Origin: Ruditapes philippinarum
Taxonomy: Eukaryota
Reading direction: 5' to 3'
DNA length: 64,000 nucleotides
Assembly (NCBI RefSeq): GCF_026571515.1
Contig: NW_026857664.1
Location: 62,001 to 126,000, forward strand
In this document: in pieces, positions 1,080-61,097 of the stretch
How the letters are laid out: each line of letters starts with the position of its first letter
Numbering within the stretch: position 1 is the first letter of the stretch
The notes under the pieces: generated by a model
What the model was told of the DNA's origin: nothing
Seen by the model: only the letters and a program-made list of their open reading frames with translations
Database searches by the model: none
Translations under genes and position numbers: made by a program

Positions 1080-1427
1080 GTTCACAAATATGTATTGCCC
1101 TCTTCCAATTTCCTGTCATACGGGCAATGCACTAGATGACATATCAATGACCTTCATGATTTATAGCTCAACAATTTATTCAATGCTACATGTCGTATAT
1201 CGTGTTACTGCATGCCTGGCTGTCATCAGCTTTCAAAAAATGTTACCGGTTTCAAAACATCATCCAGTAATTTGTCGTATGTCAAGGGAATTGTTTCCTC
1301 GTTATTAATTTAGGATCGTTGTGTTTGTCAACAGAATGTTGTGTATCTTTCAGCTCATGTGAATCGAACATTTAATTATCTCAGATCTGTCCAATGCTCT
1401 TTTTGTACTTGAGCAGCGTAGAGCCAT
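1080..1427 (-). pseudogene. Exon-like block with Sushi/CCP-like C-terminus (paralogue ~15550-15895)
   Basis: Acceptor atttcag| at ~1428 and donor-like |gtagtt at ~1078; copy B reads TQYTACN...EGHGYVT*CIARMTGNWKRAIHICK; disrupted in both copies. Confidence 0.3.
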
Positions 1428-1549
1428 CTGAAATATATGTTAACAAACAATTAAGTTTGTATAAATTTAGTATAATTCATACAAAAAAAATGTTTAAGTA
1501 TTTGAGAAATACTATATTTACATATAAATGTATTTCAAGGATAACTCTT

Positions 1550-1768
1550 ATAACATTATAGGTCATTAAAGACATTCCAGCTTTACTGGTCGAAGAAGAC
1601 CTCAAGTGCCCTTCCGTGCATTATTTCAGGCACGAACGAGCACCTGAGTAGTACCACCGGCGGATAGCTTCCTCACATGAAATAATCCAAAGTCGGGATT
1701 AGAACTGACAGCTGTAAAAAACAAATAGTTTGCAGTCAACTACCTTAACAACTCGTCCACGGAGTAGT
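1550..1768 (-). mobile_element. Diverged copy of the V-like SINE
   Basis: ttccagctttactggtcgaagaagacctcaagtgcccttccgtgcattatttcaggcacgaacg matches the 61917-62170 copy; the SINE body is not recognisable at the paralogous position in copy B (~16000-16060). Confidence 0.85.
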
Positions 1769-2729
1769 CCCAATTTTTACAGCTTTAAAATTCCTTTGTT
1801 ATTTCTTAAATATCTATTTTCAAATAATTACCATTAATCGTCAACAATCAATCTGACTAAAGTTCAGATATACTTATTTCTTAAATGTTGATCTGATATC
1901 CACCTTATTTGTTTCGCCTTCATTCAGATAAGGATTTGCCGAACTTGCTTATTTTAGCTATGTAAATCGTCCGTTACGAATAGGCATTAAAAAATTTGAA
2001 GTATGTTGTTGAAAGTGTAATGGTTAAAGATGTAGGCTCTTTCCAAAAGTCTTGCTATTAGTTTTACCCTTTAGCGAGTTGGTGGAGTGTTCACATTGTG
2101 ATCAACAGGTCTGGAGTTAAAAAACGGTCATTAGGCTTATAATAAAAAGAATGAAAATTTCATAGCCCACAAACTTTGAATGAGTTTTCACAGGTGTAAT
2201 AGTGATTCTTTCAGTCTCTTAATATTTACTTTTATCAAACTAGGGAACACATAAAGTTGTTCTATATCAAACTTAATAACAACAGATAATTATGTTCATG
2301 TTCATGATCGACGCCAAGTTTGTTCTAGCGTAAAATCTTGAAATCGTGATGATTACTTTCTCTTTATTGGTTTTCTAGAAACAGAATTGCTTTCAAATAT
2401 ATGAGAGCTCGCCGATGATTGGCTGATAAAAGACTTCGTATTTATTATGGTCAGATCTAAATGCGGGGCGTTTCTTAAAGCTGATTCAATTAGATTGCGT
2501 CAACAATATAAAAATAACTGCCTTAATAAAAGAAAATAATATAAAGAATATAAACACGCACATTTTTTTCCATTGTTACAATTGATTTGAATTAGTTCAT
2601 AAATTAATTCACATAAAGACGTACAGTCAAACATGGCCATCGAAAGACGGCCACACAAGACCTTTATAGACGAGTGGTTTTTATTCTGATATTTCTCTGT
2701 TGTATTTTATCTATGCATTTTACTTTATT

Positions 2730-3713
2730 ACAGCATAAAATCGGCTATTTTTCCCTCTTTTGTCCATGTTATAAAGGGACCCAAACCATGTGTTAACATA
2801 GTCTCGCGCTCTTGTTTTACCTATGCTAAATACATACAGGGCCCCTTAAACAAACAAAAAAATGACGATTTTGCCTGTTTGCCAAAGAGTCATGCGCTCT
2901 TAATATTTTGAAATTATTGATTCGAGGGCCTCAATCGCATGACAGCGAGCAGCTTTCAAGTAACTATGCCGGAAATACGGCGTACAGACATCGCCGCTAA
3001 TCGTGGTTGTCGCCCTTTCTAATAAACGGACAGTTGTCAATGTAAACAAATTTCTGTCATTCAGTTTTACCCTCAGATTAACTTACAAAACATGATAGCT
3101 CAAAATGAACATGAGAAAATGTTGTTTTACTGATGCTTATATTGAAAAATGCTCTTGATATTTTTTTGAGAGAATAATGTTTAGTGTCTGATTTTTTTTT
3201 ATAAACTTAAGTGCTTGAAGTTGAAACAAAAAACGATTTTGATGTCACTCACTGATCTTTTTTCTACGGTGAATTTGAAATCCATCTAGGAATTTCTGAG
3301 GGTCATGTAATGTCTTGGGTACAGTAATTTAATGTTCTTTTCTTGAAATGATAAATCTCCAATGTTAAGCTTTGTTAAATCAATAAAAATTCGATATTTC
3401 GTTCGGTTCTGAGCATTGTATTTCCCAAGTCGTTGGTCCCGGAAAAATAAAACGCATACGTTAAACATGTAGAATTGGATAAATACCGTCCAAACACAAG
3501 GATTTAATGTTTTTGTTTTGTATTTAATATACATCATGAATCTGTTTTAAAATTTTATGCTATAATAGCGTCAACACACGTTTATTTCGTGTAATAAAGT
3601 CTGCAGAGTCCCTCGGAACTGTTGGAGCCCTCGCCCTAACGGGCTAGGGCACCAACCGTTCCCAGGGACTCTGCAGACGTTATAACACAAAAAAACGTGC
3701 GTTAACCCTATAT
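2730..3713. mobile_element. Non-autonomous insertion ending in a ~150-bp hairpin, nested in the MITE of copy A
   Basis: Absent from copy B. 3562-3712 is a near-perfect palindrome (CTGCAGAGTCCCTCGGAACTGTTGGAGCCCTCGCCC-taac-GGGCTAGGGCACCAACCGTTCCCAGGGACTCTGCAG plus extended arms). Left boundary approximate. Confidence 0.65.
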
Positions 3714-5614
3714 TCACAGGGTGGTCTTTATTCTGAGGTGGTCTTTTAATCATAAATCGAAACATTCTGTCTAATCATTAGTATTGCTCACACCATGCAG
3801 ATGAACCTTATCACTGTAAGTAAAATTCTTAAGTTAATATTTTATACAGATTTGATAATTGCGACAGGTTATCTTGCATGTCACATTCCTGAACGAAGAT
3901 TCGAACAAAATGTTCAGATATCAAATAATAATATAGTAACAAATTGTTATGGATAGTTAGATGCGTAACTGCCATAAAACTTTCAAAACTATAGTCTGTT
4001 TGCAAGTACCCTCACAATTCACATTAAGATTCTATCTTTTTTAACCTAACGTTCCGAAGAGACAGCGCAAGTCATGATTAGGCAATAACTTTTATCCTGA
4101 AGAAAACAATGTTTGCGTGATGTAATAGATGTATCACATTTTAACACGATATTGTGACAATAGCATGCTTTAATGAGCTTAAACGTACAAGTGATTACCG
4201 TTGTAAAATGTCAAGATATAAATGAGATTTTAATACTGACATCTTAAAATGTTTTGTCAACAATTTCTTTAATTTGTTAAAGTGTAACTATTGTTATTTG
4301 CATTAGGTTTTTCAGTAGTTGCACTTACACTGAAAATTATGAGCAGAGTATTCAGATACAGCGGCAATATATGTACTTGTATGACATAAATGAAAGGTCC
4401 ATTATACTTCAGAATTGCTATCATTTTTTGTTTCTCAAAAACCTTTTATTTTACATTTTGGTATCATGTTTCAGTTTTCAAAAAAATACTTATTTGACTT
4501 ATACACAAATTACAGTTTGCAAAATTTGTTATTTTGGCAAATTGTATAATTAAAGTGAATTAGTATTTTGTATGAAAAACTCCTTTGTTAGTATTGCCGC
4601 ATGTTCAGTGTTATTGCTTCATTTTTTATCATCTAGTCCATTATCAAAACATTATTAAACACATGTAGGACATGTAGATTATTGAGTATTTTGGTATGCT
4701 TTTTATCTATATACAATCTAAAACAGTATGCTATCCATTTCGATTCATCAAATTCGTACAAAACGCGTATTTAAGTAGTAGTTCGCAAATACACTTAATG
4801 AATAGTTACAGTTTTCTTTTACGTGCATTCTTTTGTATAATATTCCAATGACAAACGTAAACATTTATTATCACAATAAAATACCCGTTTGCACTAATGC
4901 ATTCTTTAACTACCTGTCATGACAAGAAAACGTTATTACAAACTAAAATCTTCATGTTATTATAATAGTTATCAACTGCCGAATCAGCAATCACTTATTT
5001 ATATTGACATTTTAAAATACTTCCATTAACAGTTCATTTCTAAAGATTACTGGATTTTAATGTAAAATGCAATAAATGATAGTGTGTTTGTTTCAGCGAA
5101 ACAAACTTTACATCTATAAGTGAGAAGCTGCAGAATGCTGATATGACATCTATGACTTAAAATGGTTTAAATCATTGTCCGCCTTAATAATATATTTGCA
5201 GTGGGTATCAATCCATTTTGACATTCATAAAATCATATCCAAAAACACACTCGATTATAAATTTGACTTTTGAAAGTCAAAATCAAGATCTATAATGTTA
5301 AGAATAATAATAGAGTAAGGAACAAGTAACAACTGAAAGTAAATTTTAGAACAAAAGGTTGTGTCTTTTTTTCCTAAAATACTCTGACATTATTAAACTT
5401 AAATATTACATGAGAATTCGAAAGGAAATGTCTATTTAACACTTTTTCATTATTTCTTTAATTTTCTAAGATTTAATATACTCAGACCTACGCAATGGCT
5501 TTATATTACAAACATAATCACAGTAACCAAGTTGGATCATCTGATTTCAGGAAGTTTATGATAACGATGGTGGAGTATTATTCTTCTATGATATAATGTT
5601 TTTTTTTTTTTGTT

Positions 5615-5720
5615 CTTTCTTTTGTTGAGGTGCACGTCGCACCAACATTATAGGAGTCATATTGCGACCTTTGCAGCTTCATTTGATGAGGGAGGCCTTA
5701 TTATTTTAGACGTGATTTGG
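5615..5720 (-). mobile_element. Old SINE 3' remnant shared by paralogous copies (also ~20160-20235 and ~29345-29480)
   Basis: cgtcgcaccaacattatag..tcatattgcgac..tgcagctt resembles the SINE 3' end and sits at the equivalent position in copies A, B and C, so it predates the duplications. Confidence 0.55.
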
Positions 5721-6363
5721 GAACAAAATATAAATAAAAAATTGGCTGGATAAAATGTGTATTGGGATCCTTTACAATCGGAATTTTAATCGCTACTTGA
5801 AAGGGATTAAATGAAACAAATTATGTAGATGAATTGTAATTTATGTTTCAAATGTAAATGACCTTAACTATACAAAATATTTTAAACAATAATAATTTAG
5901 TCAATATACATAATACCATTATCATTTTAGTCATGGTACTGCAATCAATCTTTTTTTAAATTTTGTAACAGAAATATACCTTGATTTAAACTAGGCTCCT
6001 GACTATAAGTTTATTCCGCTCAGCAGCAGCTTCATCACATCATTTGTTCACCTGAATCACGAATCATCTTTTAATATCCTGTTTGATTTAGGTGTCAGTA
6101 ACAATACAATTATATTGCATGCTATCTTGAAAAAATGTATTTGGCTTCACTTCGTTCCTAGTGACTACTAGGAAATAGTTGGCTTCTTGTTAATGTTTAG
6201 GGTTTTTTTTATTTCATGATGATACACTTTGCAAAACTTATGTAAACTAATCTCATTTAATTGCAAAAACTATTGCATATTTTCATATGATGAATAAAGA
6301 TAATATGACAACTTACGCATTGTTACATGGATAAATTATTGGCCTTTTACACATTTTATTTAA

Positions 6364-6711
6364 AGTGGCATTATGCTCATATTTCCATACTCAAGTTTAG
6401 CTGAATTGATTTGATATTTCAAAAGATTAACTGTTTAAATGGTGTTTGACCAACAGTTGATATTGGAAGATATTTGGGATAAAATTATAAATATGCCTAA
6501 AATATAAAAAGACTGCCCCATTCTTTTTATAAACTGAGCGTTAGAGGTAAATTCTAATAGATATTCACAGAAATTTTATTTAGATCTGTGCACTTTTTAT
6601 TGTTTATTGGAGCTGAATTATTAAATTAAAAGGAATTATGGCAAAATGAAAACTTATTTTGATATTCATCTGTTCACTCACTATATACCCTTGGATGGGT
6701 ATAATGTCACT
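6364..6711. mobile_element. TTAA-specific MITE (Kolobok-like termini)
   Basis: TTAA|AGTGGCATTAT ... ATAATGTCACT|TTAA (10/11 TIR, RR..YY ends); the paralogous site in copy C (~30150-30175) lacks it. Confidence 0.75.
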
Positions 6712-9700
6712 TTAATATTTACATTTTGACTTTTCACACTGACATGCCAATCCGTATAAGAAAAAACGAATGGTTAAAATATAATTAATGTGTTAATTTA
6801 GCTTAAAGGAGGGATCATGCAGTTTGAGTAAAGGAATTTCAAAAAATATGAGCAGATGAATAAAGATTTATGTATTAAAATCAATAAATTACAATAAATC
6901 AATAAATTAATAAACAAGTAAGTTGTTTCCGTTCTCATCATTGCATTACTTATTTCACTTAACGTTTAACTGATCCTCCCTAAAATTCAAGGAGTCAGTC
7001 AAATATTTTACATGGGAATTCGTTCATCTTACCTAATTCTAAACAAAATATCAAGAGAACCAGTTACAATATAATACATCAGCTCGAGCAGGAAATATAT
7101 GATATTTAATAAATAAAAAGGTTTATAGACAAACAGAAATGAAACTTTTATGCAATAAGGATTTTTTAAATTATTAAAAGAGAACAATAATTCAATATAG
7201 TTTCATATTTCACATATACCGTATTTTAGTATAATATATAAGCTGATGGAAACCTTTTATCTTATTATCTAAGCACAGTAGTTGTAGCCTAATGTCCACA
7301 AAGCTGAAACTTGTTATCCTTAACGTCCGTCCATCTAAAAGCAAGTATACAGGGATTGCCTTCGGACACGTAAATGCCCATTATAACATTTCGTCTAACA
7401 TTTATCAATCTACTCATCTTAATGTAGAGTTACAAAATGAGATAAAAGCGTTATTTAAAAAAAATCCGCGTAGTCCAATAAAAATTGTGACTTTTTGTAC
7501 GAATACAAGACAATGCTCAGCAATGTTCATTGGTTTTTAAATTGATGATTTATAATTATACGGTATGCTTATTCAAAAGAACAAGTGATTTTAGTATGAA
7601 ACAGTATATGATTTGAAAAAAAAGTAATGATATTCAAAAAACAACATTTAAGTAAATGGGCAGAAAATATAGCGGAATTTAACATTATACGCATAATAAG
7701 GCATACAAGATTATTTTTTAAACATCTGAAGATCATTTCATAGGACACCCGTCAGAAAAGTTAAATGAGTTCTAGACATATTTGTATGATGCGTTGTTAT
7801 AGAGGCATATCGCGTGTGGCAGTGTTTTGCACGCATATATGAATGCTAATTGTTGCATGCTACTAGCTTGTTATACAAAGTGAGCTTATTTGTTTCAAAT
7901 TAATGAATTTGTTTTTTTTTATTTTTATAAATGCTTACAAAGTTAATTGCTACATACCATGTTGTATTGATCATTAGACTCGTGATGATAATTTAAAATA
8001 AAACATTGTTATCTATTTTATATTCCTGTGATTTTGTCCGTCCAGACTAAATGAAAACAGATAATTGTTTTTCCTAAAATGTCTCTAGAGCTGGATTTTA
8101 AAAATCCCTTAGTAATCTCAACAGAGAGAAACCTGTTCAAACTCTTGTCAAAGATGTCTAAAAATCAATTTTCATTTCAAAATTGGTAGAATCCATGATT
8201 TAGTATAGATAATATTTCAGTTTATTGAAGCTTAAAATAAATGGGATTCAAAATCGTATTACATCTGGAGACATCTATTTCTGTCGAGATATATGAAGAA
8301 TTGTAAAACAAAACGTTTACTTATCTGACAAACCATTCTTTTTTAATATATGCATACATATACTACTTTTTTCAAAAGGTTATTACTTTTGATGTCCAAT
8401 TTCATTTTCTAAAAAAGTAATGAATTCACCGTATAGACGAGTAATTTTTGGCCTTTTCTGCGTTTTGTTTTATATTAATTTTATCATAATAATAATAATA
8501 ATAATTAAAAAAGTCCATGTTTGTATGAATTTGTATCATGATCTCATCACAGAAACTCATTTAATCCATCGCGTCAAATTTTGACACTTGAACGAAACAA
8601 TATGTTTGTTCGTATAAACAATACTTTTACAAGAAACAACAACTGTTTATTTTTTAGATATTATTTTCGCATTTCAAAGCAAAAGTACGGTTATCAAATT
8701 GTCAATGAAAATATGTGTCATTTGGTTTATCAGCATTATAAATTATAATTTAATTATATTTCTCTGTGTATTTATAATCATATATACAGGTTTTATAATA
8801 AAACAATCTAAAATTGATCCATGTATATCTTTGGAAAATCGTTACTTTTCTATTTTGTAAAGGTCAAATGTCCACGACTTTGCAATACTCTACCTTCTGA
8901 GTTTTAGATACAGTCTAAATTTACCACCTTTGAAATGTAAATTAACCTCAAGATAAATATATCACCTATTGATAAATACGATCGTTATCTCTACTGACTC
9001 ACAATATCGTTATTTATCCCCCACTGTAATTTGAGAATATCAATCAAACAGTGAATTCAAATAAAATTCAAGAAGTAATGTAAATGTATGATTTATATTC
9101 CGGAAATATGGTTTTCAATATAAAATCAAAATAGTATGAACGGTGAATACAATTATAGTATTAATCAGAGCCATTAATATAAGCCTCATGTTGTAATTAA
9201 ATCATAAACTTAATTATAAAAATATAACGTTCGATAGCTATTAAAAGAAACATTTCACAGTGATTTGTGATTGCAAACTCAGTTTAGTTGAGTTGATTAA
9301 TGAGTACCAAATATGATTAATTCATGACAAACTAGGTATCACAACTCCCGCTAGGCAATAGTTACTATAATAATTCAAAACAATAGGTTATAGTATTTAT
9401 GCTATCAAACGACCAGAAAAGTGTAAGAACTAAAATACATGCACTAAATAATTGGTGTTGAAATGTTTCACAAAGATCAATGTAAAAACACGTTATTGTT
9501 ATTGTACACTTTTGGCTTCCTGAAAAGATAAACTTACTGAAAATCGTATGTTCCTAAATATCTCAGAACTGAGAAATGATATGTTAGCCATCTTGGGCAG
9601 AGACGAATATTGATATAGATGCAAAATATTATTTGTGCGAATGTTCTTTTTTGGCTTACTTCACGAATCCAAATTTGAAATATTTATGTAAAAACAGTAC

Positions 9701-10049
9701 TGTTATACATCATCGTTTTTAAGCGTATTGACTTAAATTGATAATAGTTTCATTAGAATTTCTGTGGCCAAATTCTAACTATTTCTTAATATTTGGTAGC
9801 GTGAAAATACAGATGTCTTTAGTTGATGGATTTGTGCATTGTGAGAAAGACATTAGAAAGGAAAATATGAACAGGGTCACTCAAAAAAGATATTAAGATT
9901 TTTCTAACATTAGGTTATATAGGGTATCGTCTTCACTAAAAACGTACAAAAATCGAAACATATTCTATCATATATTTATTGTTGACCTTCATAAAATTTA
10001 GTTCTCTATCTTCCACGTTATATCAGCCTTGTAGCATGTTTACTAAAAT

Positions 10050-11980
10050 GTCATAAGGCATTTTTCGAAATGACAAAATGTCAGCAACATTAGACTATAT
10101 TAAGAGATTAATTGTCGGGCCAAAGCACCATTTCCTAAAAAGACTTCCTTGTAATAAATAAAATTTATTGTTTTCAGGTAGTCTCACTTATGCCGTGCCA
10201 TCAAAAAAGACAAAAGCTTTCAAAGGATTCAGAACGATAACTTAATATAACATATATTTACGATAAATGTGTTATAATCAGTGGATAAAAAATATGTAAT
10301 ATGTAGTATGAAATAGGTGTGACTTCTACAATTATTATTATAAATATAGATAAGCAGGTTTTTTTTTTCCAGCAAAACAGCTTGTGATTTCATTGTCCTT
10401 ACTTTTCTTGCTCTTTTATTATTTGTCTGTGGTCCTGGATATAATAGTAAGCAAGCGCTGGCGTTATGCTTAAAGTGTACTGTAACCATCTGTCTTAAAC
10501 GCGTATGTTAAGGTTGATTGTGCCATCCAACTCAAAAGATGATAGAAATGACTTATGTATAACAAAGAATAAATTATCAAAATACTACTGACAAAAACCC
10601 CCAGATCTAATCAGTGAAATTGAAAGTCTAACCACTATTTGTATAACTAATATCTTTGGCAAGTAACTGTTAAAGCATCTATCTATAAGCTCAACAAAGT
10701 TATTCAAAACAATGGAACTTAACATAGTAAACAACATTAAACTAGTGACACATGAGCAAAAAGTTGTCAAAAAAACACAAATTCAAACGTATAAATGTTG
10801 AGGGTAAACTTTAAAACTAAGTGGTATTTAAAATGTTTAACCCCTCATTTCTTCAACACTATTTATGAAGATTCTATATGTTATATTTTTATATAAATAT
10901 TATGCAACATTATTAAATAATGACCTAAGCAGTCTTAATACTAGTACAACTTTACAACACTGTGAGGATATATATAACATTGCGGAAACACTTTGAACCC
11001 TGTCCAAAATCGAACAACAATAAGTCCACAATTTATCTAAATAATGATTTTGCAATACTTGTACATCTAGGTCTATTATAACTGACCACCCTCCATTTTC
11101 AATCATGATATATTGTATATAATTATTGTTAGTTTAAATACAACTACACATGATCTTAGTCACGCAAATATCTCATTTATCAAAAAAAAAATCTGATGTG
11201 AGAATGACATTAGATAGGAAATTATGAACAGACTGCGAGTGAAGAAATTTACTAAAGAAACATAATTATAATGATACCTGCAAATAATGTATGTTATTAA
11301 GTATCAAGCTTAAAATTGTATGGATATCAATGGCAAATAAATTGCATACATGACGCGGTTAACGGATAGCAAAATATAAAGAATGTTATTAAATATTAAT
11401 TACAATTAATTTACCAATTATGTCATTTAGCAAATATGATGATGCAGATAAAATCAGCATGCTAGTTTATGCAAATTTTGGAATTGAACTAATCACAAAG
11501 TGTTATTTTTAATTCGTTATTGTTTAGCCAATATATTGTAAAAAAAATCTTTCGGACTACACATAACTCATAGGTAGCCATGGTTTCAATGTGCATTTAT
11601 CTAATTTGTATATTTTTGTATTCGTATTATTCTATATTTGTATGTGTTTCAATTTTACAATACAAAAAACTCATGTTAAATACTTAGGTAATGAGTTTTT
11701 TTCCCTAAATTCAATCTTCAGCTAATGACAATGCCAGGATATTCTACTTATTAGATGAACCGAAAGTAAATAATTTTGAAAGAAGTTCAAGCGAGAATGA
11801 CTGGTCAGGAGATTATAAGATATTTGCAAGAGGTTCTCAAGTTGCAGTATCTATTGCAATATCTCATTAGACTCCTGTAACAAATACTCAATAGAAACCA
11901 GCTGCATTTAAATTAGCATGATGTTCTACCAACAACACAAGCATAAGCAAATAACGAGGAACCAGTTTAATTGGCAATGT
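10050..11980 (-). pseudogene. Decayed signal peptide + PAN-like + EGF-like + C-type-lectin-like gene (copy A)
   Basis: Manual translation: (I)KLVPRYLLMLVLLVEHHANLNAA ... PDQSFSLELLSKLFTFGS (11687-11975); ~85-bp intron; DKCTLKPWL..ELCVVRK..TLCD*..KICIN*HADFICI (11415-11601); SACLLLYPGPQT..RARK and FDGT (10060-10494). Many stops and frameshifts; domain calls are by motif recall only. Confidence 0.45.
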
Positions 11981-14900
11981 TCGTATCAGAAGGAGATGCG
12001 TTTATCCCGGAATGACGCAACTAACGTAAAAAAATAATAATGTTTTGACTGTATATGTAATATCAATTCGACAAGATTCAATCATCATGTACATGATGTA
12101 ATTTAAAAGGCTATGACGGGTGTATCTTAATGTATTACTTGTGTTTGACACTCTTGGATTTTCTTACAACGCCAACCATACAATCATACTCTAATAAAAT
12201 CAACTTCTTAATAAAGATACAGTGCTATAAAATTCATAATTACCTCATTTACATTTTTGAAATATGCAAACAAATTGCGCAACTTAAATAACATAAACAT
12301 GTATAATGCCATTCAAATTGCAAATATCAATATTATCACCATAGTTAAAATCGTATTGCCCGAGTTCTGTAATGTTTCTGTCGATATTGATTCAGACGGT
12401 ATAACATGACTCTGTTTGTTACACCGTTTTAAACTGTGTTGAGAAAAACAACATATTTTTTTTTTAATTCCTGATAATGAAATTTATAACTTAAGCTACA
12501 AACTATCAGATAACATATACCTCTGAAAGTAGTCCTTAAAAACAAATATGAATATTGACTCCGCCAACTTTCATTTTGTAATTAATAGATAGGAAATCTA
12601 TTAGTTCGATAAAGCTCCATATGTCATGAGTGCAATTAAATAAAAAAATATATCACTGATACGACTTGTAATAATGTGACACAACAATTCACTCACGAGA
12701 AGACTTGTCTAATTAGTACTGTGATTAAGTTTTATAACTATTCATCAAATGAAGTGATTAAAACCGAGTGATTAAATTGAATTAATGACATAGAGATATC
12801 TTATCATGTGCATATTTGATTTATGTTTTCAATATAAAATTCGGGGAAGTTATATATATCGCCGCGGCGGAAATAAGAATTATTACAAATTCTAGTATAT
12901 TTGAAAAATGATAAATTGTATCGGTACCAAACAATAAATTTACTCTATATCATCGGCCTTAATTTTAGTAGGAACGTGTAGGGACATATTGCCATAAGAA
13001 GAAATGGTGTTATTTGGAATGGCATGTGCCGATCAACTGATTTAAATTGAGTGTGAAACATTTCATAAATTATCTAAAAGTCACCCGAGGGATGCAATAT
13101 TTATCAATTCAATAATGTGGAGAGATGCATTTGCTAAAATGTTTAGTTCATAATTAAAAAAAAATATGAAAACAAATAAAAGTAATTCATTGTCATTCTA
13201 TATCAGTAAAATACAATAATGGTAATTGAATAACTATACCGTTACTGTGAAAAACTATTATTAATATATAAATTAATGAATGTATACTAATTTATCATGA
13301 TATGGCAGAAAAAATGAAACACAATTATATTTTATAAATATATATGAAGTGTACATGCATAATGAAGTTGATTTGGTGGAAACTAAGATCATAGTGTCTG
13401 CATATAACAGAGGGTATTTCTTATTTAATGGAAAAAGTTACGAACATTAACATTTTAAGACGGTATCAGTTAAAACTGAGTTAAAAAAATTATGCAGTAA
13501 ACAGTAAATTTGATAGTTTATGATAATGTGATTATTCTTCAGTAACATAATTCCACCTTTGCTAATTAAGTATTAATTACAAACAAGAATGACTGCTCTG
13601 AAAAATATCAGACCGTTCAGAATTTTTTGAACCGCAATAATTAATTTTTAATCATTTGATTAGTCATTGATTAGTGAAGAGCTGCAGTTGGATAAAATTA
13701 ATATTCTATCGGCAACGTAATCTTAAGTGAATAACAAATAGTTAGAATGCTACCGATTGAATACAAGATGACACTTTGAAAAAAGTAACTTTCTGTCAAC
13801 AAAGATTTAAACCAGACACAGATTACAAAACATTTGGCTTGTTAGAATTAAATTAGTTATTGACAAACAAGTCACGAAAGACCTCCGTAATTTCATTATT
13901 GTATCAGACTTTTTTTAACCGCAAACGTTTATGAAGTCTTATTATATACTTACTGAATTCTGAGTTTCAAATATTGATGATAATGATATAAAAAAGATAT
14001 ATCAAGGGATACCACATTATGGTAAATGCGTGTTATTGGCCAACCATTTGAAAAAAGATGCTGAGTAGCAAAGCATAGGTTAAATAAACACAAAAATAAC
14101 GCGCTTAATTAAATAATATACTTTGTATTACATTACATATTGACCCAAACTCGTACACAACAGTGCTATGAACACTGCTGATATCTGAATACATTGTAAT
14201 TACATAGAAGATTTCCGTAATAAGACTTTGTTTAGGATAATAAATAGGGACACGAACAATTCTCTTTATAATTACACTAATTATGTATATAAATCAAATC
14301 TGATTAAGGCCTGCATAGATGTGGTAAATTAGAAAAGGTTTTTCGTTGATTATTTGATAGAACTAAAACATGATGGATCTGATTTTCACCAGACACTTCG
14401 GCACCGTAAAAAACATTTTTGTCAAAAAGGTTTGCCAAATCGATCATTTGCATAAATATCCTTGAAATTTTGCTTAGTATATGCTTCTGTTTATGCAAAT
14501 TTGTTACCTTGTCCTGTATTAAATGCCTGGACTATAAGTGTTTAATACAGACATAACCTGGCATATAAATCAGACAAAACTAGAATCATTATATGTAAAA
14601 AATATTTTTGTTATTTATTATAACAACCATTTACTCCTAGTTTCGCTTTTTTTGTCTAAGACACATAACATGTTAAAAACAGTTTCCCATGAGAACAGTG
14701 CAATTTTTGTCTGTATTTATTTGTATTTTTTAACCAAACTTGATTTCAGAAACGTGTATTTTCTGTTTTATTATTTACTTCATTACAGGCTTGACCATTA
14801 CGTCGGTGACGTGTCATTTAAAGAAATACTTGAACAGTGCTTTAATTTTTACGTAATAAATTGTTAGTAATTAGCATTTGTTAAATGCATATTAATTCTC

Positions 14901-16890: not shown

Positions 16891-17063
16891 CAGTCAAACC
16901 TGGCAATCCAAAAACGACCACACAAGACCTGTATAGGCAAGAAGTCTTCATTCGGACATTACTCTGATGTACGTGTATCTATGGAAGTTTATCAAGCATT
17001 AATTAAATATTTTTTCATGTGCTAGTCTTTATTTGGAGATGGTCCTTTAATCAGGTTTGACTG
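16891..17063. mobile_element. Tc1/mariner-type MITE (173 bp)
   Basis: TA|CAGTCAAACCTG ... CAGGTTTGACTG|TA: perfect 12-bp TIR with TA TSD; the paralogous MITE in copy A (from ~2624) is interrupted by a ~1 kb insertion. Confidence 0.85.
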
Positions 17064-22559: not shown

Positions 22560-23120
22560 CTTATAAATATATGCAATTGCCGATAAATCTTTCATTAAAT
22601 GTGTTTGTAGTATTCGAACACTATCGTGATCGATTGATGGACTGAGTGAAATAAAGTACATTTCTAGTATAATTACTGAATGTAAATATGAAACAAAATA
22701 TCCATTATCTCCAACATGAAATAAATGATCTTTTAACAAATCTAAATTGTAATAATAAATTACTAGACAGCACAGAAAAAACAGCCATAAAGTAAACTTC
22801 AACATTTGAAATAGGTTATCTGAATAATAACAGCAGGGGAATGAATTGCTTCCCACAAAGTAAAATCACTTACCTTGAAACGGGTGAATTAATTGTAATG
22901 TCAAGTAATGGGGCAGACTTAATTATTCCGCAATTTATTCATGTGTCGCCTTTGTTTATTTTTATAATCAATGACAGACACCATAATATTAATGATGTAA
23001 ATAATAATAATTGCGTCATAAAATACTGCAGCAGTATGCAAAGCTAATGCATTCCATTAGCAGATTATCTGCAATCTTTAGGATATCGTAAAGATGTCGC
23101 TCAGAATAACGCAACACAAG
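22560..23120 (-). pseudogene. Decayed PAN-like exon + C-type-lectin-like exon (paralogue on + strand at ~50215-50760)
   Basis: ..IIC/LMECISFAYCC/AVFYDA.. ending CAAG|gtaagt at 22874; then GDNGYFVSYLHSVIILEMYFISLS...THLMK. In copy D the donor is mutated to TTAAGT (50461). Confidence 0.4.
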
Positions 23121-23423
23121 TATCTATAACTTAACTTTTTGGCGTTAAGAATAACTCAAATTAACCCTTTTTCAACACTTATAAAATGTGTTTAGAAACT
23201 TCAGCGTAAGTCACTATTTTCATTTTAAAGTTTTTTATGACCAATAACTGAAAAAATGACGTAAATATTGCTTCTCCTTTTAAGATATTCTTCACTATTT
23301 TTCTTACAATTATATATTTTTGTGTTTTTTACTTATGACATACTTTACAAAAAAAACATTTTAACATAGTAAAGGCGTAGAAAATTGAGCCGAATTTAAC
23401 AATACACGTATAATTACGTACAC

Positions 23424-27765: not shown

Positions 27766-27959
27766 TGGCAATGTGGGTATGAGAATGTGATGCTTCGAAT
27801 ACGTTTACATTTACAAAATCATAATATTTTGAATGTTATTTGAAATATTAAGTAATTCAATAAACAAATCAGACACTGTGTTTCCGAATTTATTCTTTTT
27901 TCACTTACATCAACAGAGTTTATTGTAATATAGAAATATAGAAATGTAAAAGCACTAAT

Positions 27960-40194: not shown

Positions 40195-41330
40195 TACAGC
40201 TTTTTACAGATGGTGAATGACTTAAATCTTATCCAACATTTACAATATGATGCCATGAAATATTTTAGCAGCTCACTTTAATTGAATATGTCTGTAATAT
40301 CTACTTTACACACTTATACCAATTTCACAATTTTACGTTTATAATGGTGTACGTGGATATTCATTTTGTTTTACATAATTTATTTTCCTCGTCAATAGGT
40401 TTATGCAGGTCGAGGACATCCTGCTCTATACCGATATTCATTTTAGCCTTTAGTCTATTTTCTCGTTTCCTGATCCGAGTATGAATAAGATATTCCTTAA
40501 GTAAATGTTATCCATTACCTGGACCAGTTACTGTTATAAATGAATTTTCACAAATTCCTAAAATTCTTAATGCTGTCATAGAGGATATGAATTGAACTTT
40601 ATTAAAATATAAAACCGTTGGAATACGAATTTTTTAATTTCAACCTGAAAAATATGAATTCATTGTTTTTTAAAGCGATTGCCCCTTTTCCCCTTTATCA
40701 ACTTTTTTGGTGCTTGTTTTTTGTTAAAAAAGCAAACAATAAAATTATGTTTTTTTAATTTAAAAAAAGTCGGACTGTTTAAAATTTTTTATAAAATTGG
40801 CGAATACTTTTAAACATTTTGGGGTTTTGAACGCTTTTCTTAATGAAAAACCCTCAACACAAAAACCAAAAAAAGCAAATAATTTAATTTAAATTTTGAT
40901 TAAAATTATTTCTTTTTTTTCATTATTTTAAAAACAGCTTTTAATTTATTTAATTCCAAACAACCTTGCATGATATAACATCATTTATTGCATGAGTTGT
41001 GTAACAATAATTATCGTGTAAATGAGCCTAATTTTCCATATAATTACAAAAGACAAATGTCAGATTAGAAATGGCTTTTTTGCATGTCTTCTTCATCCAA
41101 ACGTTAACTTGATATATGGTTGCAGTGGAGTATCATTTAAATGTCCGTTAATAGAAGAGAGATATGCGTATATATAATTTTGTGTTGCTGTTGCCTAGTA
41201 CTGGTGATAAGTCTAGTGCAATTATTCCTAAATATATTACTATCGCATATTTGGGCCTAAATAATGTTCTGTTCTATTTTTGTCTGCGTCATTTGAAGTA
41301 AATAGCGCAATACGAATAATAAGAACATGT
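40195..41330 (-). pseudogene. Decayed signal peptide/PAN-like + C-type-lectin gene
   Basis: MFLLFVLRYLLQMTQT at ~41328; acceptor ttttcag| at ~40644, then in order across frameshifts LGIC, VT/WS, LFILGS..EKID, VL(D/G)LHK, NW, SWH(H/D), FTICKK, which is the motif order of a CTL domain. Confidence 0.5.
40660..40960. other. Second homopolymer-inflated stretch
   Basis: Same texture (gccccttttcccctttatc, ttttggggttttg). Confidence 0.55.
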
Positions 41331-43899: not shown

Positions 43900-45000
43900 A
43901 AAATGTCATTAAAAATTTATTGCTTTTCATTATATTTTTAATTTGTATGTACTGGTATTACAAACCCTTTTTCTTTTAATAATTTTAACCAAACACTTTC
44001 TTTTATCCCATTTTTTGGGAAGTTAAACTATTTGAAAGTTTTTAACAAAAACGGGTTTTTAATCCGAGTTGTAAAAATTTTTCCCGTTTAATGTTTTCTT
44101 GGGGGAAAATTGTCGTTTTTTTAGTAAAAACATTTATTTCAGGGGGTTTTATAAAAGTTTTTAGGTTTTTTTGGAAGGGTCAAGGACAAAAAAGAACATA
44201 AAAAAAATGTTTTTTAGAAATGAATTTAAAAAACTTTTTTATGTGCTCCCGAATTTGAAAAGACTACCAAAAGGCAATTTTATAATTTAATTTTGGGTTT
44301 ATTTTAAAAATTCCTAAAAATTTCATCCCAATAAAATTTTTAACCTTCAACTATTAAGAGAAAACCCCTTTTAATTTTTTGGGACCGTCCAAATGATTTT
44401 CAAAATTTTGCTTGCTTTAAAAAAAATACAATTAGCCCCTTTTCAAATTCCCAAATTTTGGTTTTTTAAAATCTGGGGGTTTTTTAATTTAAAAGACTTT
44501 TAACTTTTTTTAATTTTGATTTTTCCCAAGGGATTTGCATGTAAAAAGATTTTTTTGGGATTTAAGTTAATACTAAACCCCGGGGAATTTTTTTCCGGGT
44601 TTCTAATCTGATATTTGGGCCAAAAAACTAAATTTTAAATTTTTTAAAAAAAGACCCCAAAGTATTTTTTGATTTTAAGTTTAAAAAAGGGAAAAATTAA
44701 AAAAGGGTTTTTCAAAACATTAATTTCGAAAATTTTTTTTGATACCCCAAAGGGTAATTTTAAAAAACAACCCTTTTTGCTTTTAAATAAAGGGAAAAAT
44801 TGTATGACATTTTCCGGTAATTTAAAATTATTTTTATTTTTTTAAGTTTTCATTAAAATGTTTTATATTTTAAAGTCAAACATAAATTTTCTTAAGGGAG
44901 CGTCAAAGACTGGGTTTTCCTCCCTTTTTTCTTCCCCCTTTTTGGTTTTGAAAATTCCCAAAACCCTTTTGATTCTATCAATTTTTTATTTTCTATTAGA
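43900..45000. other. Homopolymer-inflated low-complexity stretch, probable low-quality long-read consensus
   Basis: Dense runs of all four bases (ggggg, cccc, ttttttt, aaaaaaa), unlike the flanking DNA. Confidence 0.7.
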
Positions 45001-45520
45001 CAGTGGAACGGAAACGTTCCGTGCGTTCTACTGAGGTGATCTGCCCGTACCTGGGCTAATGCACCCAACAATTGGGTAGGTAAATTCTCGGAAACATCAG
45101 TGTTGTAAATTACAGACAATTGCGTATGCGATTTTTCATTTATTAGTTTTAAGTAATTATGTTTTACAGAATATCAGATTTCTATCTAAAAAATTATGTC
45201 TAGTTTCAGAGAGGATTGATAAAGTAATACAGTCGGGAATCATTGCACTGGATGAATTAATCTTTGTGACAGTTAATATGATGCACTTCCACAAACGATA
45301 TGTGTAACTAAAGCTGTAATACCGGGACAGTTTAACATCATTGTCATCAATTTTGATTAATTATCGAAATCCTCGGAAAACCATGGACACAAATAACCAT
45401 CTCTGAAGAGTGCAGCTCTGAACAATGTTGTGCTTACTTGAGAGATCAATATTTGAACAGAGAATAATAATCACAATAGACATCTAGTAAGTCTTAACTT
45501 TTGATTTAGTAAAACGCATT
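44999..45520 (+). pseudogene. C-type-lectin-like remnant
   Basis: After tattag|: ..ETFRAFY / SARTWANA.KQ (CTL F..CY....TW..A...C pattern) and later PWTQ...SSEQCCAYL; interrupted by stops and frameshifts. Confidence 0.35.
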
Positions 45521-47924
45521 GCAAAGCTAAACACAAAAGCACTTTTTTATGAAGGCAGCGTTTAAAACATATTGCATGGTGTAATGTAGATAAAGCGAAA
45601 AGTTGGGGCTTTCATTTAATCATACAACTAGTAGAATTATTTTCATTTTAATTTATATTTGTATTTTTCAACATGCATTCAATAAAATTGATTAAATTAC
45701 AAATAGTATTAAATGAGTAATACAATATATTTCAAAAGACTGTTTTATCCCATGATATATCTTATATTTTATCTTTATCAATATTTGATTACTTTCAGAA
45801 TTCAGTTGATATATTGAGACATCAGAAATATTTGTTTCAAACATTTAAGATTATTTGTATTCACAAAAAATGAAAAAGAAGCCTAATAATATAATAAAGG
45901 TACGAAGGACCTTCGTGACTTGTTTGTCAATAACTAATTTATTTTAACATGCCAAATCTTTTGTAATCTGTGTCTGGTTTAAATCGTTGTTGTCAGAAAG
46001 TGACTTTATTCAATGTGTCATCTTGTATTCAATCAATAGCATTCTAACTTTTCTTTATTCACTTAAGATTATGTTGCTGGTAGCATATTATTTTAATCCA
46101 ACTGCAGCTCTTCCCATTTGAATATTATTCAATCAAAGACTGCAAATAATAAAACAATAATTCTTGCTGTTCAAACAAATTCTGAACTGATATTTTTTCA
46201 GACCAGTCATTCTTGTTTGTAATAATGCAAAGTGAGTACAGGTGGGATGATACTTCTGAGGAGTAATCACACAAATAAAAAAATACTATCAAATCAACTG
46301 TTTGCTGCATAATTTGTTTAACTATTTGTAACTATTTCCAATTATGGTGCATTTTAAAAAAGAAATACCAGAAGATTTTTGTTTGGTTACTCTGAGAATA
46401 TTTTGCCTAATACTTAAATAAGCCGTCTGTGATCTAAGTTAACCACCTCATCTTCATTATACGCTTCATATCCATTTATGTACTATAATTATGTTTCATT
46501 TTTCAGCAATTTCATGATATATTAGTATACATGTATCTGGTATTTATTAACTAATATAATTATTATAATAGTTTTGCACAGTAACGGTACAGTTATTTTA
46601 TTACCATCATTGTATTTTACTGATATAAAATAACAATAAATAACTTTTATTTGTCATTTTCATCAGTATTTACGACCGAAACATATAAAGCAAATCCATC
46701 GTTCCACATTATTGAATTGATTTATATTGCATACCCAGGGTGACTTCTAGATAATTTAAAACGTTAATGACATGTTTTCACACTTAATCTAAATCAGTTG
46801 TTCGCCAAATGTCATCCCAAATAACACACATTCTTTCTTATGTCAGTATGTCCTTAAACGTTCTTGTCAACATAAGGCCGATGCAAAGCTTTCATGGATT
46901 ATATTTTGCATACATGTTGAAACTTTATAATCATTCTTAACTAATCTGAATTTATTAATCAATATTTTTCTAGCACATTATTTCTATTTTGAAAAGCATA
47001 CCATCTAACATAGATTGATTTGAATAGTTATTTATATGTGGTGTTTACAACGAAACGTTATAAGATTTATAACTTCATGTTCAGTCTTACTGTATTGGTA
47101 ATGATTCGATTCTTTACTGGTCTTTGTTTCCACTAACACCAATATTTGTGGTGGGAAACATTGACCAATGCCTAAGCAGGCACTTTAAACATAAATATGC
47201 TGCACTAATAAACAGAAGTTATTTGGTACATATAAAATTTATTATTGTCAAAGATATTTGGAAGTTATCTTATTTCTTCCGTGTCGATACATATAACTAC
47301 CCCGCTGTCCAAATTTAATATTGAAAACAAATGTGCGACACATAAATCAAATATGCACATGTTTACATAAGCTTACTTCATTTATTTAATTGAATCGGGT
47401 CGTTTTTAATCACTTCATCTGATGAATAGTCTTGAAACTTAATGGAAGAACCAGTTAGATATATCACTACATGAGTGAGTTGTTTTGTCATAACATTACC
47501 ACTCAGCGATAGATCTATTAATTATATTTTAATATGTCTAACAAACCAACGGGTCGTGTTATACTGTTTAAATCGACGTCGACAAACTAGAAACATTGCT
47601 GAACATTGTGAATTAGATTGCTGTTATGATGAAAATATTGATATTATAAAAAAAAACAATATACGTTGTTTTGTTATTACAATTGTTCAATGTATATGCA
47701 TATTTCAAAAATGAAATAAACTAAGGTTATTATCATGAAGGTTTTTCTTAAAATGGCAGCGTATATTATAAGGTTATGATCGCGAACGGCATGGTAGATG
47801 TTGTAGGAAAATCCAAGAGAGCTGAAGTTACTATAAAAGATCAAGATATGCCCGTAATAACCTTTTAATAATAAACCTTGCCGAAACAATACAACACATA
47901 AAACCTAAAACATGTTTTACTTCA

Positions 47925-48175
47925 GGTACGTCGTTCAGGGTCACACTTGAGTGTAATACAGATTATTTTCTGTTGAGCAATTGTAATTTTCGAATACCTA
48001 TTTCAGCCCAATCATTAGCAGTGTAAACACTTGCCTAAATAGAATCGAGATTCAATTGCAGAGTATAATAAAAATTAGCTAATGCAGGAAAATCCGCTAA
48101 GTCCATAAATTCAGTATATGAACTCATTAATTTGCTCAAAGTGTGCACTTAGCATATACTTCCTGATTAAAACGT
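47925..48175 (-). pseudogene. PAN/Apple-like exon remnant
   Basis: Single frame after aaatag|: ..IYGLSGFSCIS*FLLYSAIESRFYLGKC; single-base reversions (TAA->GAA, TTT->TGT) give SCISECLLY, the PAN C-x3-C core. Confidence 0.4.
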
Positions 48176-51100
48176 CTATTTCCTTTCTTTTGTTCAAAAT
48201 AAAGACTAGAAAATTGAAATATATACGCATATAAAATTGCTGAACACACAAGTTCTCGCACAAATAAGTTGATTAGTCTGCACTCGCTTGGATAATGCAA
48301 GCATTTTTTATCTTATAACACGAACTTATGACTTTGAAGGTAGTCTTGTCTTTGACAATTGAATAATTAAAATCAACAGGAGACTGTTATACGAAAATTT
48401 TCTTAGGCGAAACATGTAATTTTATAATAAATTATTTGGCAGCAAACAAATTTATTAACTAAGAATAAAATGCATAGACATATGTATCATCAAACATGCT
48501 TCTTAAGCAGAAACTCACAAGTCATTCCCTGTTTGCAAAAAAACGGGGAAAAAAAACAAAACTAATATATGTAACTTGTTAAAATTAAGGGGGAAAAAGA
48601 GAATCATTATTACATGTACATGTTAACAATTTATTAGATTTTGTTTAATGAACATATTTTCACATATATTGTTATAATTTCATAATTCATTTCATAGATA
48701 ATTTTAGAGAACTGCACTGGTGTTTTATTTGTCTTTAATGCACAAATAGAAGAAATGCTTTTAATTGTGATACACAATATCGATAACATTTTTCAACAAA
48801 TGCTTGAAGATTTCTGAAAACATTAATTCACAGCTGTCAGTAGAATTTTATCTATATAAGAATATTATCTATACATCTTTGGTCAAAAATTTCATTATCA
48901 TTCATTCAAGAATAAACATTTGACATAAAATGAAATATATATCAGTCATTTTTAATTTTAGAATTTAGGTTTATAGGTACTACCATTGTTTTGAATTATT
49001 ATAGCGATTATTGCATAGCGGTGATCGTGATACAAAATTTATCATAAATTAATCAAACTTGATACTCATTAATTGCCTAAACAAAACTGAGTTTGCAATC
49101 ACACATCACTGTGAAATTGTTCGTTTAATTGCTATCGGATATTATATATTCATAATTTAGTTTAGAATTAATTAAATTTCAACATGAGGCTTATATTAAT
49201 TTCTGTACAAAAGCTGAAATCAATTAATTTTTCTGATTAACACTATTGTTATCAGCGTTCATCGTATTTTAATTTTATATTGAAAACCAAATTTCCGGAA
49301 CATAAATCATGCATTTACGTTACTTCTTGACTTTTATTTGAATTCACTGTTTGATTGATATCCTTAAAAATTAGAATCATGTTCCAAAGGTAACTAAAAT
49401 GCATCACGCAGTCTTTTTAATTACAGTGTGGGATAAAATAACGACATTGTGAGTCAGTAGAGTTAACAATCATAATTATTAAAATGTGATATATTTTTCT
49501 TGGGGTTTATTTACGTTTTCGAAAGTGGTACATTAATTATGTATATAAAACACAGAAGGTAGAGTATTGCAAAGTCGTTGGGTTTTAACCTTTACAAACT
49601 AGAAAAGTAACGATTTCCCAAAATCTTTCTCTTAACAAATTAGCGACATTTTCATGTACAAGCTAGTAGCATGCAACCGTTAGCATTTATATATCCGTGT
49701 AAAGCACTACAACATGCAATATATCTCTATAACAGCGCATCGTTCACGCATTTCAAAAACTCATTCAACTTCCCAGATGCTTGCCCTTATTCTTACGTGT
49801 ACTTTATTATACGTGTATTGTTAAATTCGGCTCAAATTTCTACGCATTTACTATGTTAAAATGTTGTTGTTTTGTGAATTATGTCATAAGTAAAAAGCAC
49901 AACAATATATAATTGCAAAAAAAGATTAAAGAATATTTAAAAAAGGAAAAGCAATATTTACGTCACTTTTTCAGTTATTGGTCATCAAAAACTTTAATAT
50001 GAAAATAGTGACTAACGCTTTTAAGCACATTTGATTAGTGTTGAAAAAGGATAAAATTGAGTTATTCGTAACGCCAAAAATTAAGTAACTATACTTTAAA
50101 TATATATTGGGTATTCAATGTCACCATGATATATAAGTCCCCCATATATTCCAGGTAAAATGAAACCACATTCCGTATGCTCAAGATACCCATTGATCAC
50201 CAATAAAATAATATTTGTGTTGCGTTATTCTGAGCGACATCTTTATGATATCCAAAAGATTGCAGATAATCTGCTAATGGAATGCATTAGCTTTGCATAC
50301 TGCTGCAGTATTTTATGACGCAATAATTATTATTTACATCATTAATATTGTGGTGTCTGTCATTGATTATAAAAATAAACAAAGGAAAAAAATGAATAAA
50401 TTGCGGAATAATTAAGTCTGCCCCATTAATTGACATTACAATTAATTCACCCGTTTCAAGTTAAGTGATTTTACTTTGTGGGAAGCAATTCATTACCCTG
50501 CCTTTATTATCCAGATAACCTATTTAAAATGTTGGAGTTTACTTTATGGCTGATTTGTCTAATGCTGTCTAGTAAATTATTATTACAATTTAGATTTTTT
50601 AAAAGATCATTTATTCATGTTGGAGATAATGGATAGTTTGTTTCATATTTTCATATTTACATCAGTAATTATACTAGAAATGTACTTTAAATCAATCAGT
50701 CCATCAATCGACCACGATAGTGTTCAAATACTACAAACACATTTAATGAAAGATTAATTGGCAATCGCATATATTTATAAGAATAAGTTGATTAAATATT
50801 ATAAAAAACAACAAAACAAAACAAAAACAATAAATTGTGTGTATTTTTTAAATGGAGTCAAAAGTCATACTAGAAGGTTTATTTTGATATTCTTATTAAG
50901 ATGCAATTAAATATTTGCATACCCTTCCAAATTAAATCTTTCTATTGTATAAAGAATACAAAGAATACATAGAATAATGGGAATTAAATATCCAATATCT
51001 TATGTACATTTGTTCACCTGTAGTGGTACATGTTTTTTTTTTCTTTAAACAAAGAAATAAGTCCTCAAACACTTAAATTGTCAGCAGTGCTAAATAATTA

Positions 51101-61045: not shown

Positions 61046-61097
61046 GAAATAATGAATGGGATGTCTATATACAAACTACACTACTTACCACATGTAC

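Follow-up and report, generated by a model that had tools for sequence, protein, structure and literature searches.

Bivalves possess about 200, and up to 300-500, C-type lectins (CTLs) as well as lineage-specific multidomain CTL proteins, some of which contain sushi domains, as the main text of PMC10140915 describes. Category C of the CTLDcps defined there is bivalve-specific and combines a CTL with extra domains, sushi being named among them; PAN domains, apple, EGF and pseudogenes are unmentioned in that main text, and one of its supplements contains no PAN, Sushi or EGF term. For Mytilus, the passages of PMC12294457 on the myticalin families report highly degenerated paralogous pseudogenes as frequent. 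A literature search for work joining Mytilus or mussel, PAN/apple domain and lectin returned none. The locus analysed here, positions 1,080-50,760 of a 64,000-nucleotide stretch of Ruditapes philippinarum DNA (the window), resembles the category C CTLDcps, as described in the main text of PMC10140915, in that a CTL remnant is preceded by other Cys-rich modules, and differs from them in that all copies in the window are broken and no protein match was found. It shares with the myticalins, as those passages of PMC12294457 present them, clustered paralogues arising from tandem duplication and degenerated pseudogenes, but the myticalins are antimicrobial peptides of a different gene family, and unlike them the window contains no living member and its latest duplications post-date inactivation. 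Among PDB proteins, the C...W...C...[FY]VC portion at the C-terminal side of the remnant aligns with CTL domains from LY75 (DEC-205) and from botrocetin beta (8hbc, 8k8h, 7jpt, 7jpu, 1fvu) at E-values of 0.59-4.2 over about 30 residues, a resemblance of fold family only and not orthology.

We consider it likely that the locus is a pseudogene field in an AT-rich genome (GC of the stretch 29.5%), composed of one or several decayed genes for secreted CTL-domain proteins that were duplicated after death and encoding no functional lectin. According to this model, inactivation would have struck at least one multi-exon gene that encoded a secreted protein with a C-type lectin domain and comprised a Cys-rich first exon, an EGF-like module and a CTL split over two exons; a tandem duplication of 14-16 kb, together with inverted and partial ones, would then have multiplied the dead DNA, and the copies would have drifted neutrally since, with no functional lectin being made.

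The duplication array claimed in the earlier note is confirmed. Self-homology, in the form of a direct repeat of 14-16 kb, a partial copy in inverted orientation and further fragments, extends over 59% of 1,080-50,760 and only 10% of 31,100-45,700. In self-alignment, 1-12.07 kb is collinear with 14.35-27.85 kb, the blocks of both units being 69-84% identical with gaps and about 78-87% when aligned bases alone are counted. Parts of the 7-14 and 21-29 kb segments match 45.7-52 kb in inverted orientation.

2..12066, plus strand: duplication unit A, direct copy of unit B (self-alignment)
14352..27851, plus strand: duplication unit B (self-alignment)
29470..31010, plus strand: additional incomplete copy of the blocks at 5.9-7.5 / 20.3-21.7 kb
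45741..52006, minus strand: inverted, rearranged partial copy of the 7-14 kb and 21-29 kb segments, identity up to about 95% at 22.6-23.1 kb

At the self-homology threshold used for coverage, six of the ten blocks cited in the earlier note are fully duplicated, 28,133-28,376 and 47,925-48,175 are duplicated to 71% and 34%, and the duplicated share is 0% for 40,195-40,644 and 45,000-45,520. The GC content of the cited blocks is 0.29-0.36 against a background of 0.29. Older homology islands of 150-400 bp with 60-70% identity, set in unalignable flanks, look like exon remnants and would be exons of further paralogues; an Rfam scan gave 0 matches.

The segment resembling a lectin gene most clearly lies at 24.5-27.9 kb and has a twin in unit A.

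24566..24735, minus strand: C-terminal remnant of a CTL domain (C...W...C...FVC), from Pfam and PDB
26010..26408, minus strand: probable N-terminal half of the CTL with FDGT at its end, labelled by eye and position; no CTL match in Pfam or PDB
27063..27379, minus strand: EGF-like start (DEC...PWLH), preceded by a phase-1 TTAG acceptor and followed by a stretch that may be Sushi-like; no Pfam match
27478..27899, minus strand: upstream block rich in Cys, belonging to a DNA family of six copies; PAN label putative
8280..12102, minus strand: twin of the 24.5-27.9 kb remnant, with CTL C-part at about 8,280-8,450 (internal deletion), CTL N-part at about 10,170-10,494, EGF-like start at 11,601 and Cys-rich block at 11,682-12,102

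Among 597 Pfam-scanned window translations, one matched Lectin_C (PF00059), at 24,539-24,694 minus with E=0.062 and 14.5 bits. The match covers profile positions 73-106 of 107, i.e. the C-terminal third only, and stays below the gathering score of 22.6 bits, a low score being expected for a frameshifted fragment. By a hand estimate that leaves out Cys-composition bias, ~0.02 matches to ~15 pre-named PAN/EGF/Sushi/Lectin_C models would be expected by chance from 597 queries at E<=0.062. A Cys...W-x-x-x-C...[FY][IV]C skeleton is the C-terminal signature of CTL domains, and it is present at 24,566-24,655 minus, aligned to LY75 CTL domains. All five PDB matches of the 24.5-kb remnant at E<=10 are to LY75 or botrocetin beta, both CTL-domain proteins; they rest on the same residues as the Pfam match. 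A frameshift may join the C-terminal remnant to an upstream piece. The N-terminal CTL pattern (W..A...C, WIG and DG[TS] in order) was sought and yielded FDGT at about 26,085 and 10,205; EPN/QPD and WND, the Ca2+/sugar-binding motifs of C-type lectins, are not recognisable in the decayed CTL frames. EGF-like domains are marked by a D-E-C...P-C start on a phase-1 exon, and such a start, with W replacing the second C, is found at 27,379 and 11,601 minus. The order Cys-rich block, DEC..P behind the phase-1 acceptor, FDGT block and C-terminal CTL piece is kept on the same strand in both twins. Because the Lectin_C match lies downstream, on the same strand, of the cited CTL-like block, the cited EGF-like start and the Cys-rich block, there is fairly good support for a single gene remnant at 24.5-27.8 kb, with its twin at 8.3-12.0 kb; we infer that the C-terminal remnant and the blocks upstream of it come from one gene. 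The Lectin_C match is situated outside the blocks cited in the earlier note.

Further blocks are spread over the array and the unique DNA.

1130..1471, plus strand: member of the six-copy Cys-rich family (DNA homology)
15600..15939, plus strand: member of the same family, twin of 1,130-1,471
13539..13900, minus strand: member of the same family
45891..46259, plus strand: member of the same family, twin of 13,539-13,900
7160..7640, minus strand: four-copy block (also 21,320-21,800, 30,676-31,003 and 51,516-51,974), its by-eye reading, CTL-like or Sushi-like, varies with the frame
7740..7872, minus strand: three-copy block (also 23,930-24,070 minus and 49,640-49,790 plus), weak synonymous excess in its most open frame
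22874..23125, minus strand: exon-like block with intact AAG/GTAAGT donor, cited as PAN, putative; no Pfam PAN match; twin at 50,210-50,465 (plus) with mutated donor
28133..28376, plus strand: exon-like island, cited as PAN, putative; 68-70% identical to 38,371-38,543 (inverted)
47925..48175, plus strand: exon-like block with a TTACTTCAG acceptor in front, cited as PAN, putative, and open to a Sushi-like reading too
40195..40644, minus strand: unique block after a TTTTTCAG acceptor, cited as CTL, putative
45000..45520, plus strand: block cited as CTL, putative; weak 63% partner at 33,809-34,055

The blocks cited as PAN fall into at least four DNA families without detectable link, and no cross-family protein match among the cited blocks rose above controls. 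That every block would be a paralogue sharing a single architecture is supported by no test. A CTL reading of 1,080-1,430 minus was dropped; DNA homology ties this block to the six-copy family.

The motif letters quoted in the earlier note are readable where it placed them, with stops and frame changes, and for several blocks another frame or strand yields a reading that looks just as much like a domain. We compared motif counts with 60 local dinucleotide shuffles, the patterns having been picked after reading the claim. Two patterns exceeded all 60 shuffles: [DN][EK]C-x3-4-P[CW] (2 vs 0.0, both being copies of one ancestral event) and the loose C-x3-C-x4-7-C (33 vs 17.9+-4.2). F/W..DG[TS] (4 vs 1.3) was reached by 5% of shuffles and TW..A (6 vs 3.6) by 18%, while the strict PAN pattern C-x3-C...[SN][FY]x[FY]...C-x-L (1 vs 0.2; 17%) and W[HDN]..IC[EKQ] (1 vs 0.7; 57%) each had their single match outside the cited blocks. 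Measured against chance the picture is mixed; strict PAN, TW..A and W..IC.K show no enrichment. The splice-like bounds hold for one end of seven of the ten cited blocks, with signals at or within about 10 bases, namely acceptors at 47,925+, 45,000+, about 28,124+, 27,378-, 11,601- and 40,644-, the AAG/GTAAGT donor at 22,874- and a donor-like site at 11,415-; block ends were probably chosen at such signals, making this count partly circular. Across 1,080-50,760, TTTCAG is enriched (61 vs 37.2+-5.1, 0/100 shuffles) and GTAAGT donors are not (23 vs 25.3).

Protein-level searches were nearly all blank. None of the 597 window translations matched Pfam PAN, EGF or Sushi, sensitivity being low on frameshifted pieces; the queries included 92 tiles and 427 stop-free ORFs (208/212 and 219/220 picked by Cys/Trp filters), and no intact lectin exon was detected among these ORFs by Pfam, in line with the claim that the window contains no intact member. 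The cited blocks gave no PAN, EGF, Sushi or Lectin_C match in 48 six-frame translations with stops as X, nor in further frames and tiles; this stops-as-X scan also missed three eIF3c control frames, other eIF3c exons matching strongly. Nine of ten PDB query translations, one off the intended frame, returned no CTL, PAN, EGF or Sushi protein. The cited blocks show neither an EGF-like six-Cys pattern nor a Pfam EGF match, and no Pfam Sushi or PDB complement-control match supports Sushi/CCP. Unrelated families match other ORFs as well or better (zf-MYND E=0.0005, DUF1106 E=0.0014). Word-based homolog searches, which are weak for such fragments, gave 50, 228 and 6 candidates with none at E<=10 and found no functional parent or intact paralogue; among 1.84 billion representative proteins, nothing matched a two-row profile made from the Cys-rich/EGF/Sushi read-through of the twins at E<=0.001. 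Within the window, a four-way alignment of the cited CTL frames did not converge (16-24% identity), the all-against-all translated comparison (best 30 bits vs 28 in the reversed control) revealed the six-copy family only, and frameshift-tolerant scans with 10 window-derived queries recovered known DNA twins only, scores slightly above controls falling outside the cited blocks, one of them antisense to an eIF3c exon. No test backs the PAN and Sushi labels or the CTL readings at 40,195-40,644 and 45,000-45,520. The EGF label keeps its DEC..P start behind a phase-1 acceptor in both twins and has no Pfam match, and of the CTL remnants the Lectin_C match and its twin remain, the other cited CTL and PAN readings not exceeding controls.

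The duplicated blocks carry disabling lesions and neutral divergence, as unprocessed pseudogenes do. Copies share stops in 30/30 frame pairs of five long ungapped blocks, codon periodicity reaches p<0.05 in 0/27 ungapped blocks (22 array, 5 repeat controls), and paired copies differ by 5-20% substitutions without such periodicity. No codon signal is seen in the differences fixed between two clades within the six-copy family (7/12/8, p=0.46). A purifying-selection signal at p<0.05 appeared in 2/23 distant, non-independent blocks; the three-copy block, one picked from 18, gave p=0.007, or 0.026 over six frames. Long ORFs did not reappear when a majority consensus was built from the multi-copy blocks. 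Because paired copies share stops in all six frames and lack codon periodicity, what the recent duplications copied was dead beforehand, and the lesions of these copies do not stem from sequencing error. Segmental duplication of such dead sequence raised the copy number, so independent gene deaths are fewer than copies. The proposed lectin pseudogene cluster is partly confirmed; the '6-9 PAN-EGF-Sushi-CTL paralogues' are unverified.

It is very improbable that the animal carries intact genes and that the stops and frameshifts arose as errors in an unpolished long-read assembly. Homopolymer runs are inflated at 40,501-41,000 and 44,001-45,000 (robust z 10.5 and about 21), segments that each adjoin one of the two unpaired cited CTL blocks (40.2-40.6 and 45.0-45.5 kb), where such errors may contribute, but run lengths in paired blocks are normal, the stops and substitutions of separate copies argue against such errors, and the eIF3c exons of this window have open frames and high scores. 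It is rather unlikely that we are dealing mostly with pattern-reading, i.e. duplicated non-coding DNA and old repeat relics in which TGT-rich AT DNA gives chance Cys motifs, with at most one stray genuine CTL fragment. Frame-dependent readings, the unenriched patterns and donors and the blank searches favour it; the CTL match in a pre-named family, in the expected order and strand relative to the cited blocks, the EGF-like start directly behind an acceptor in both twins and the enriched loose Cys spacing oppose it.

Real genes whose Cys-rich first exons are an EB/EGF-like or other bivalve-specific module, instead of signal peptide plus PAN/Apple, with several unrelated families possibly sharing the cluster, appear less likely than mere pattern-reading. 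The ORF at 1,271-1,372 matches the Pfam EB module below threshold (E=0.002, 18.6 bits against a cutoff of 24.3; E=0.028 and 0.07 in longer reads around it) in a frame that aligns without shift across all six copies, and the unlinked families of cited PAN blocks fit such a mixture, but by hand calculation about one match at E<=0.002 is expected by chance from about 430 ORFs, and neither the twin ORF 15,742-15,852 nor other copies match EB. Returning to a decayed CTL gene duplicated after death, a full PAN-EGF-Sushi-CTL architecture is plausible, if tentative. With low probability, the locus could be the fossil of an undescribed bivalve-specific multidomain lectin family (PAN-/EB-like module, EGF, Sushi, CTL), extinct in this haplotype and perhaps intact in other individuals through presence/absence variation, its dead copies still being amplified by segmental duplication.

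Broken lectin genes are an ordinary by-product of fast-evolving immune gene families, and the decayed, duplicated CTL gene, if true, would reflect routine turnover in an expanded invertebrate lectin family; its importance would be greater should other individuals carry intact alleles or should the domain architecture turn out not to have been described before. It would also carry a caution, namely that counting pseudogenes in clusters of this kind overestimates gene births, since copies already dead were duplicated, and it would mark about 50 kb that annotation would leave blank. Outside the cluster, a living neighbour gene served as positive control.

61068..63790, minus strand: eIF3c exons with open frames (Pfam PCI E=9.5e-08; eIF-3c_N E=1.5e-25 and, in another scan, 5.6e-21)

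A short dispersed repeat, presumably mussel-like, is located near 62.0 kb.

The window is a duplicated pseudogene field, and the presence within it of the remnant of one C-type lectin (CTL)-domain gene, in two copies, is fairly well supported. The remnant, at 24.5-27.9 kb on the minus strand, would comprise the following pieces:

27,899-27,478, minus: Cys-rich block, first in the sequence order
27,379, minus: TTAG acceptor with phase-1 DEC...PWLH, i.e. an EGF-like start (motif and splice signal)
26,408-26,085, minus: block ending in FDGT (motif)
24,735-24,566, minus: CTL C-terminal piece (region of the Pfam and PDB matches)

This order is compatible with a modular secreted CTL-domain gene, given the exon logic of such genes. 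The twin, i.e. the counterpart copy in the other duplication unit, spans 12,102-8,280 with part of the last exon being lost, and its version of the CTL C-terminal piece carries NW slightly upstream, in a neighbouring frame.

The Pfam search covered 597 translations, i.e. 48 + 30 + 92 frames or tiles plus 427 Cys/Trp-selected stop-free ORFs (208/212 and 219/220). One of the 597, at 24,539-24,694 on the minus strand, matched Lectin_C with 14.5 bits (E=0.062), under the cutoff of 22.6 bits, ORF residues 8-41 aligning to profile positions 73-106 of 107. Taken alone, this score is at noise level because unrelated Pfam families score as well or better on other ORFs; it carries weight because the family had been named beforehand, about 0.02 matches to such pre-named families being expected by chance in an estimate made by hand that assumes 15 relevant models and ignores composition bias. 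All five PDB matches of the same ORF are CTL-domain proteins (LY75 and botrocetin beta; E 0.59-4.2) and fall on the same residues as the Lectin_C match, the other nine PDB searches being uninformative. PAN, EGF and Sushi were matched by none of the 597 translations. What the earlier note observed is partly confirmed, and the dead cluster of PAN-EGF-Sushi-CTL lectin genes that it proposed is partly supported, by the CTL-domain remnant in its two copies but not by any match to the other three domains. Word-based homologue searches and an exhaustive profile search, all weak on frameshifted fragments, gave no relative. Queries derived from the window, with frameshifts allowed, recovered only their own DNA twins, and none of the ten blocks in which PAN, EGF-like or CTL motifs had been read found a block of another family above controls, so that the CTL readings at 40,195-40,644 and 45,000-45,520 and all Sushi readings stay impressions.

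The letters quoted for these ten blocks are present in the sequence, several blocks being readable in two or three plausible ways, by frame or strand. Compared to 60 local dinucleotide shuffles, with patterns picked after reading the earlier finding, the EGF-like start (2 observed vs 0.0, the pair deriving from a single event) and a loose spacing of Cys residues (33 vs 17.9±4.2) are clearly above chance, F/W..DG[TS] is borderline with 5% of shuffles reaching the observed count, and the strict PAN, TW..A and W..IC.K patterns are not enriched. As to the proposed splice-like bounds, 7/10 blocks have such a signal at or near one end and acceptor-like TTTCAG is enriched region-wide (61 vs 37.2), but donors show no enrichment region-wide. 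Antisense to the block at 22,874-23,100 lies a near-open frame (22,796-23,123, plus; twin 50,211-50,460, minus) that is interrupted by just 1-2 stops in 85 codons; no sense frame is as open, and Pfam gave no match.

In self-alignment, 1-12.07 kb recurs in direct orientation at 14.35-27.85 kb, 45.7-52 kb holds a copy that is both inverted and rearranged, and 29.5-31 kb a partial one. Self-homology amounts to 59% of 1,080-50,760 and 10% of 31,100-45,700, and short islands of 60-70% identity connect further places. A DNA profile, whose reversed control gave one match (E=4.9), unites six Cys-rich blocks, which form three pairs:

1,130 and 15,600, plus: first pair
11,682 and 27,478, minus: second pair
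13,539, minus, and 45,891, plus: third pair

The other blocks read as PAN (22,874, 28,133, 47,925) have no detectable DNA link to this family or to one another. At 1,271-1,372 the EB module is matched below threshold (E=0.002, one such match being expected by chance), in the frame that can be aligned through all six blocks, which makes EB a rival label to PAN. Neither the PAN and Sushi labels nor the number of paralogues (6-9) is verified.

The latest duplications are later than gene death. Among five long blocks of exon-like appearance, every one of the 30 frame pairs has at least one stop common to both copies. Ungapped blocks aligned between close copies, 27 in total, show no codon periodicity (p=0.12 at the lowest), and the frames stay closed in a majority consensus. 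Any coding function had thus been lost before the tandem and inverted duplications took place. Sequencing error as the source of the lesions is argued against because independent copies share them. Homopolymer runs are strongly inflated at 40,501-41,000 (robust z 10.5) and 44,001-45,000 (robust z about 21, with G/C runs of at least 3 at 19-27% against 2%), which suggests an unpolished long-read consensus in these segments, and the two unpaired CTL candidates (40,195-40,644; 45,000-45,520) adjoin them and may carry such errors. The signal for older paralogues having diverged while alive is weak: 2/23 distant blocks reach p<0.05, the pooled clade test gives p=0.46, and one three-copy block, singled out of 18, has a synonymous excess (20 vs 12.0±3.0, p=0.007, 0.026 over six frames).

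PMC10140915 describes about 200 and up to 300-500 CTLs in bivalves, as well as multidomain forms specific to bivalves, of which some include sushi domains; one of its supplements contains no PAN, Sushi or EGF term, and its figures may bear on the architecture. Mytilus immune families of tandem origin include degenerated pseudogenes (PMC12294457). Mussel PAN/apple and lectin were not found together in the literature searched, which mostly excluded subscription journals, and the architecture may be described elsewhere.

GC content of the whole window is 29.5%, just 17 stop-to-stop frames reach at least 90 aa, and an Rfam search gave 0 matches. The eIF3c exons at the right end identify the window as spliced eukaryotic DNA, the gene running on past the window edge. 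The host may be a mussel-like bivalve, judging by base composition and by the short dispersed repeat listed below, which may itself be of mussel type. The further elements are:

61,068-63,790, minus: eIF3c exons, open frames (Pfam PCI, E=9.5e-08; eIF-3c_N, E=1.5e-25 and 5.6e-21)
1,553-1,736; 5,612-5,737; 29,290-29,476; 57,095-57,229; 61,900-62,160: short dispersed SINE-like repeat family, 62-93% identity
4,545-5,439; 18,459-19,204; 59,394-60,304: three-copy dispersed element, about 0.8 kb, both orientations, 69-85% identity
4,040-4,405 and 19,690-20,051: dispersed pair, inverted, 82% identity
17,419-17,901 and 57,996-58,484: dispersed pair, direct, 80% identity

The three-copy element has no coding signal and served as neutral control, and the two dispersed pairs are probably mobile-element relics. 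At 35,141-37,987, inverted repeats of 460 bp (91-94% identity) enclose ~1.9 kb; ORFs scanned within gave no Pfam match, and this is a probable non-autonomous DNA transposon or foldback element. A stop-free frame of 86 aa in unique DNA (39,108-39,365, plus) is protein-like in reading and has no Pfam match. One copy of the SINE-like repeat sits within an eIF3c intron, and 39,632-39,790 holds an inverted repeat of 71 bp, 77% complementary, with a 17-nt spacer.
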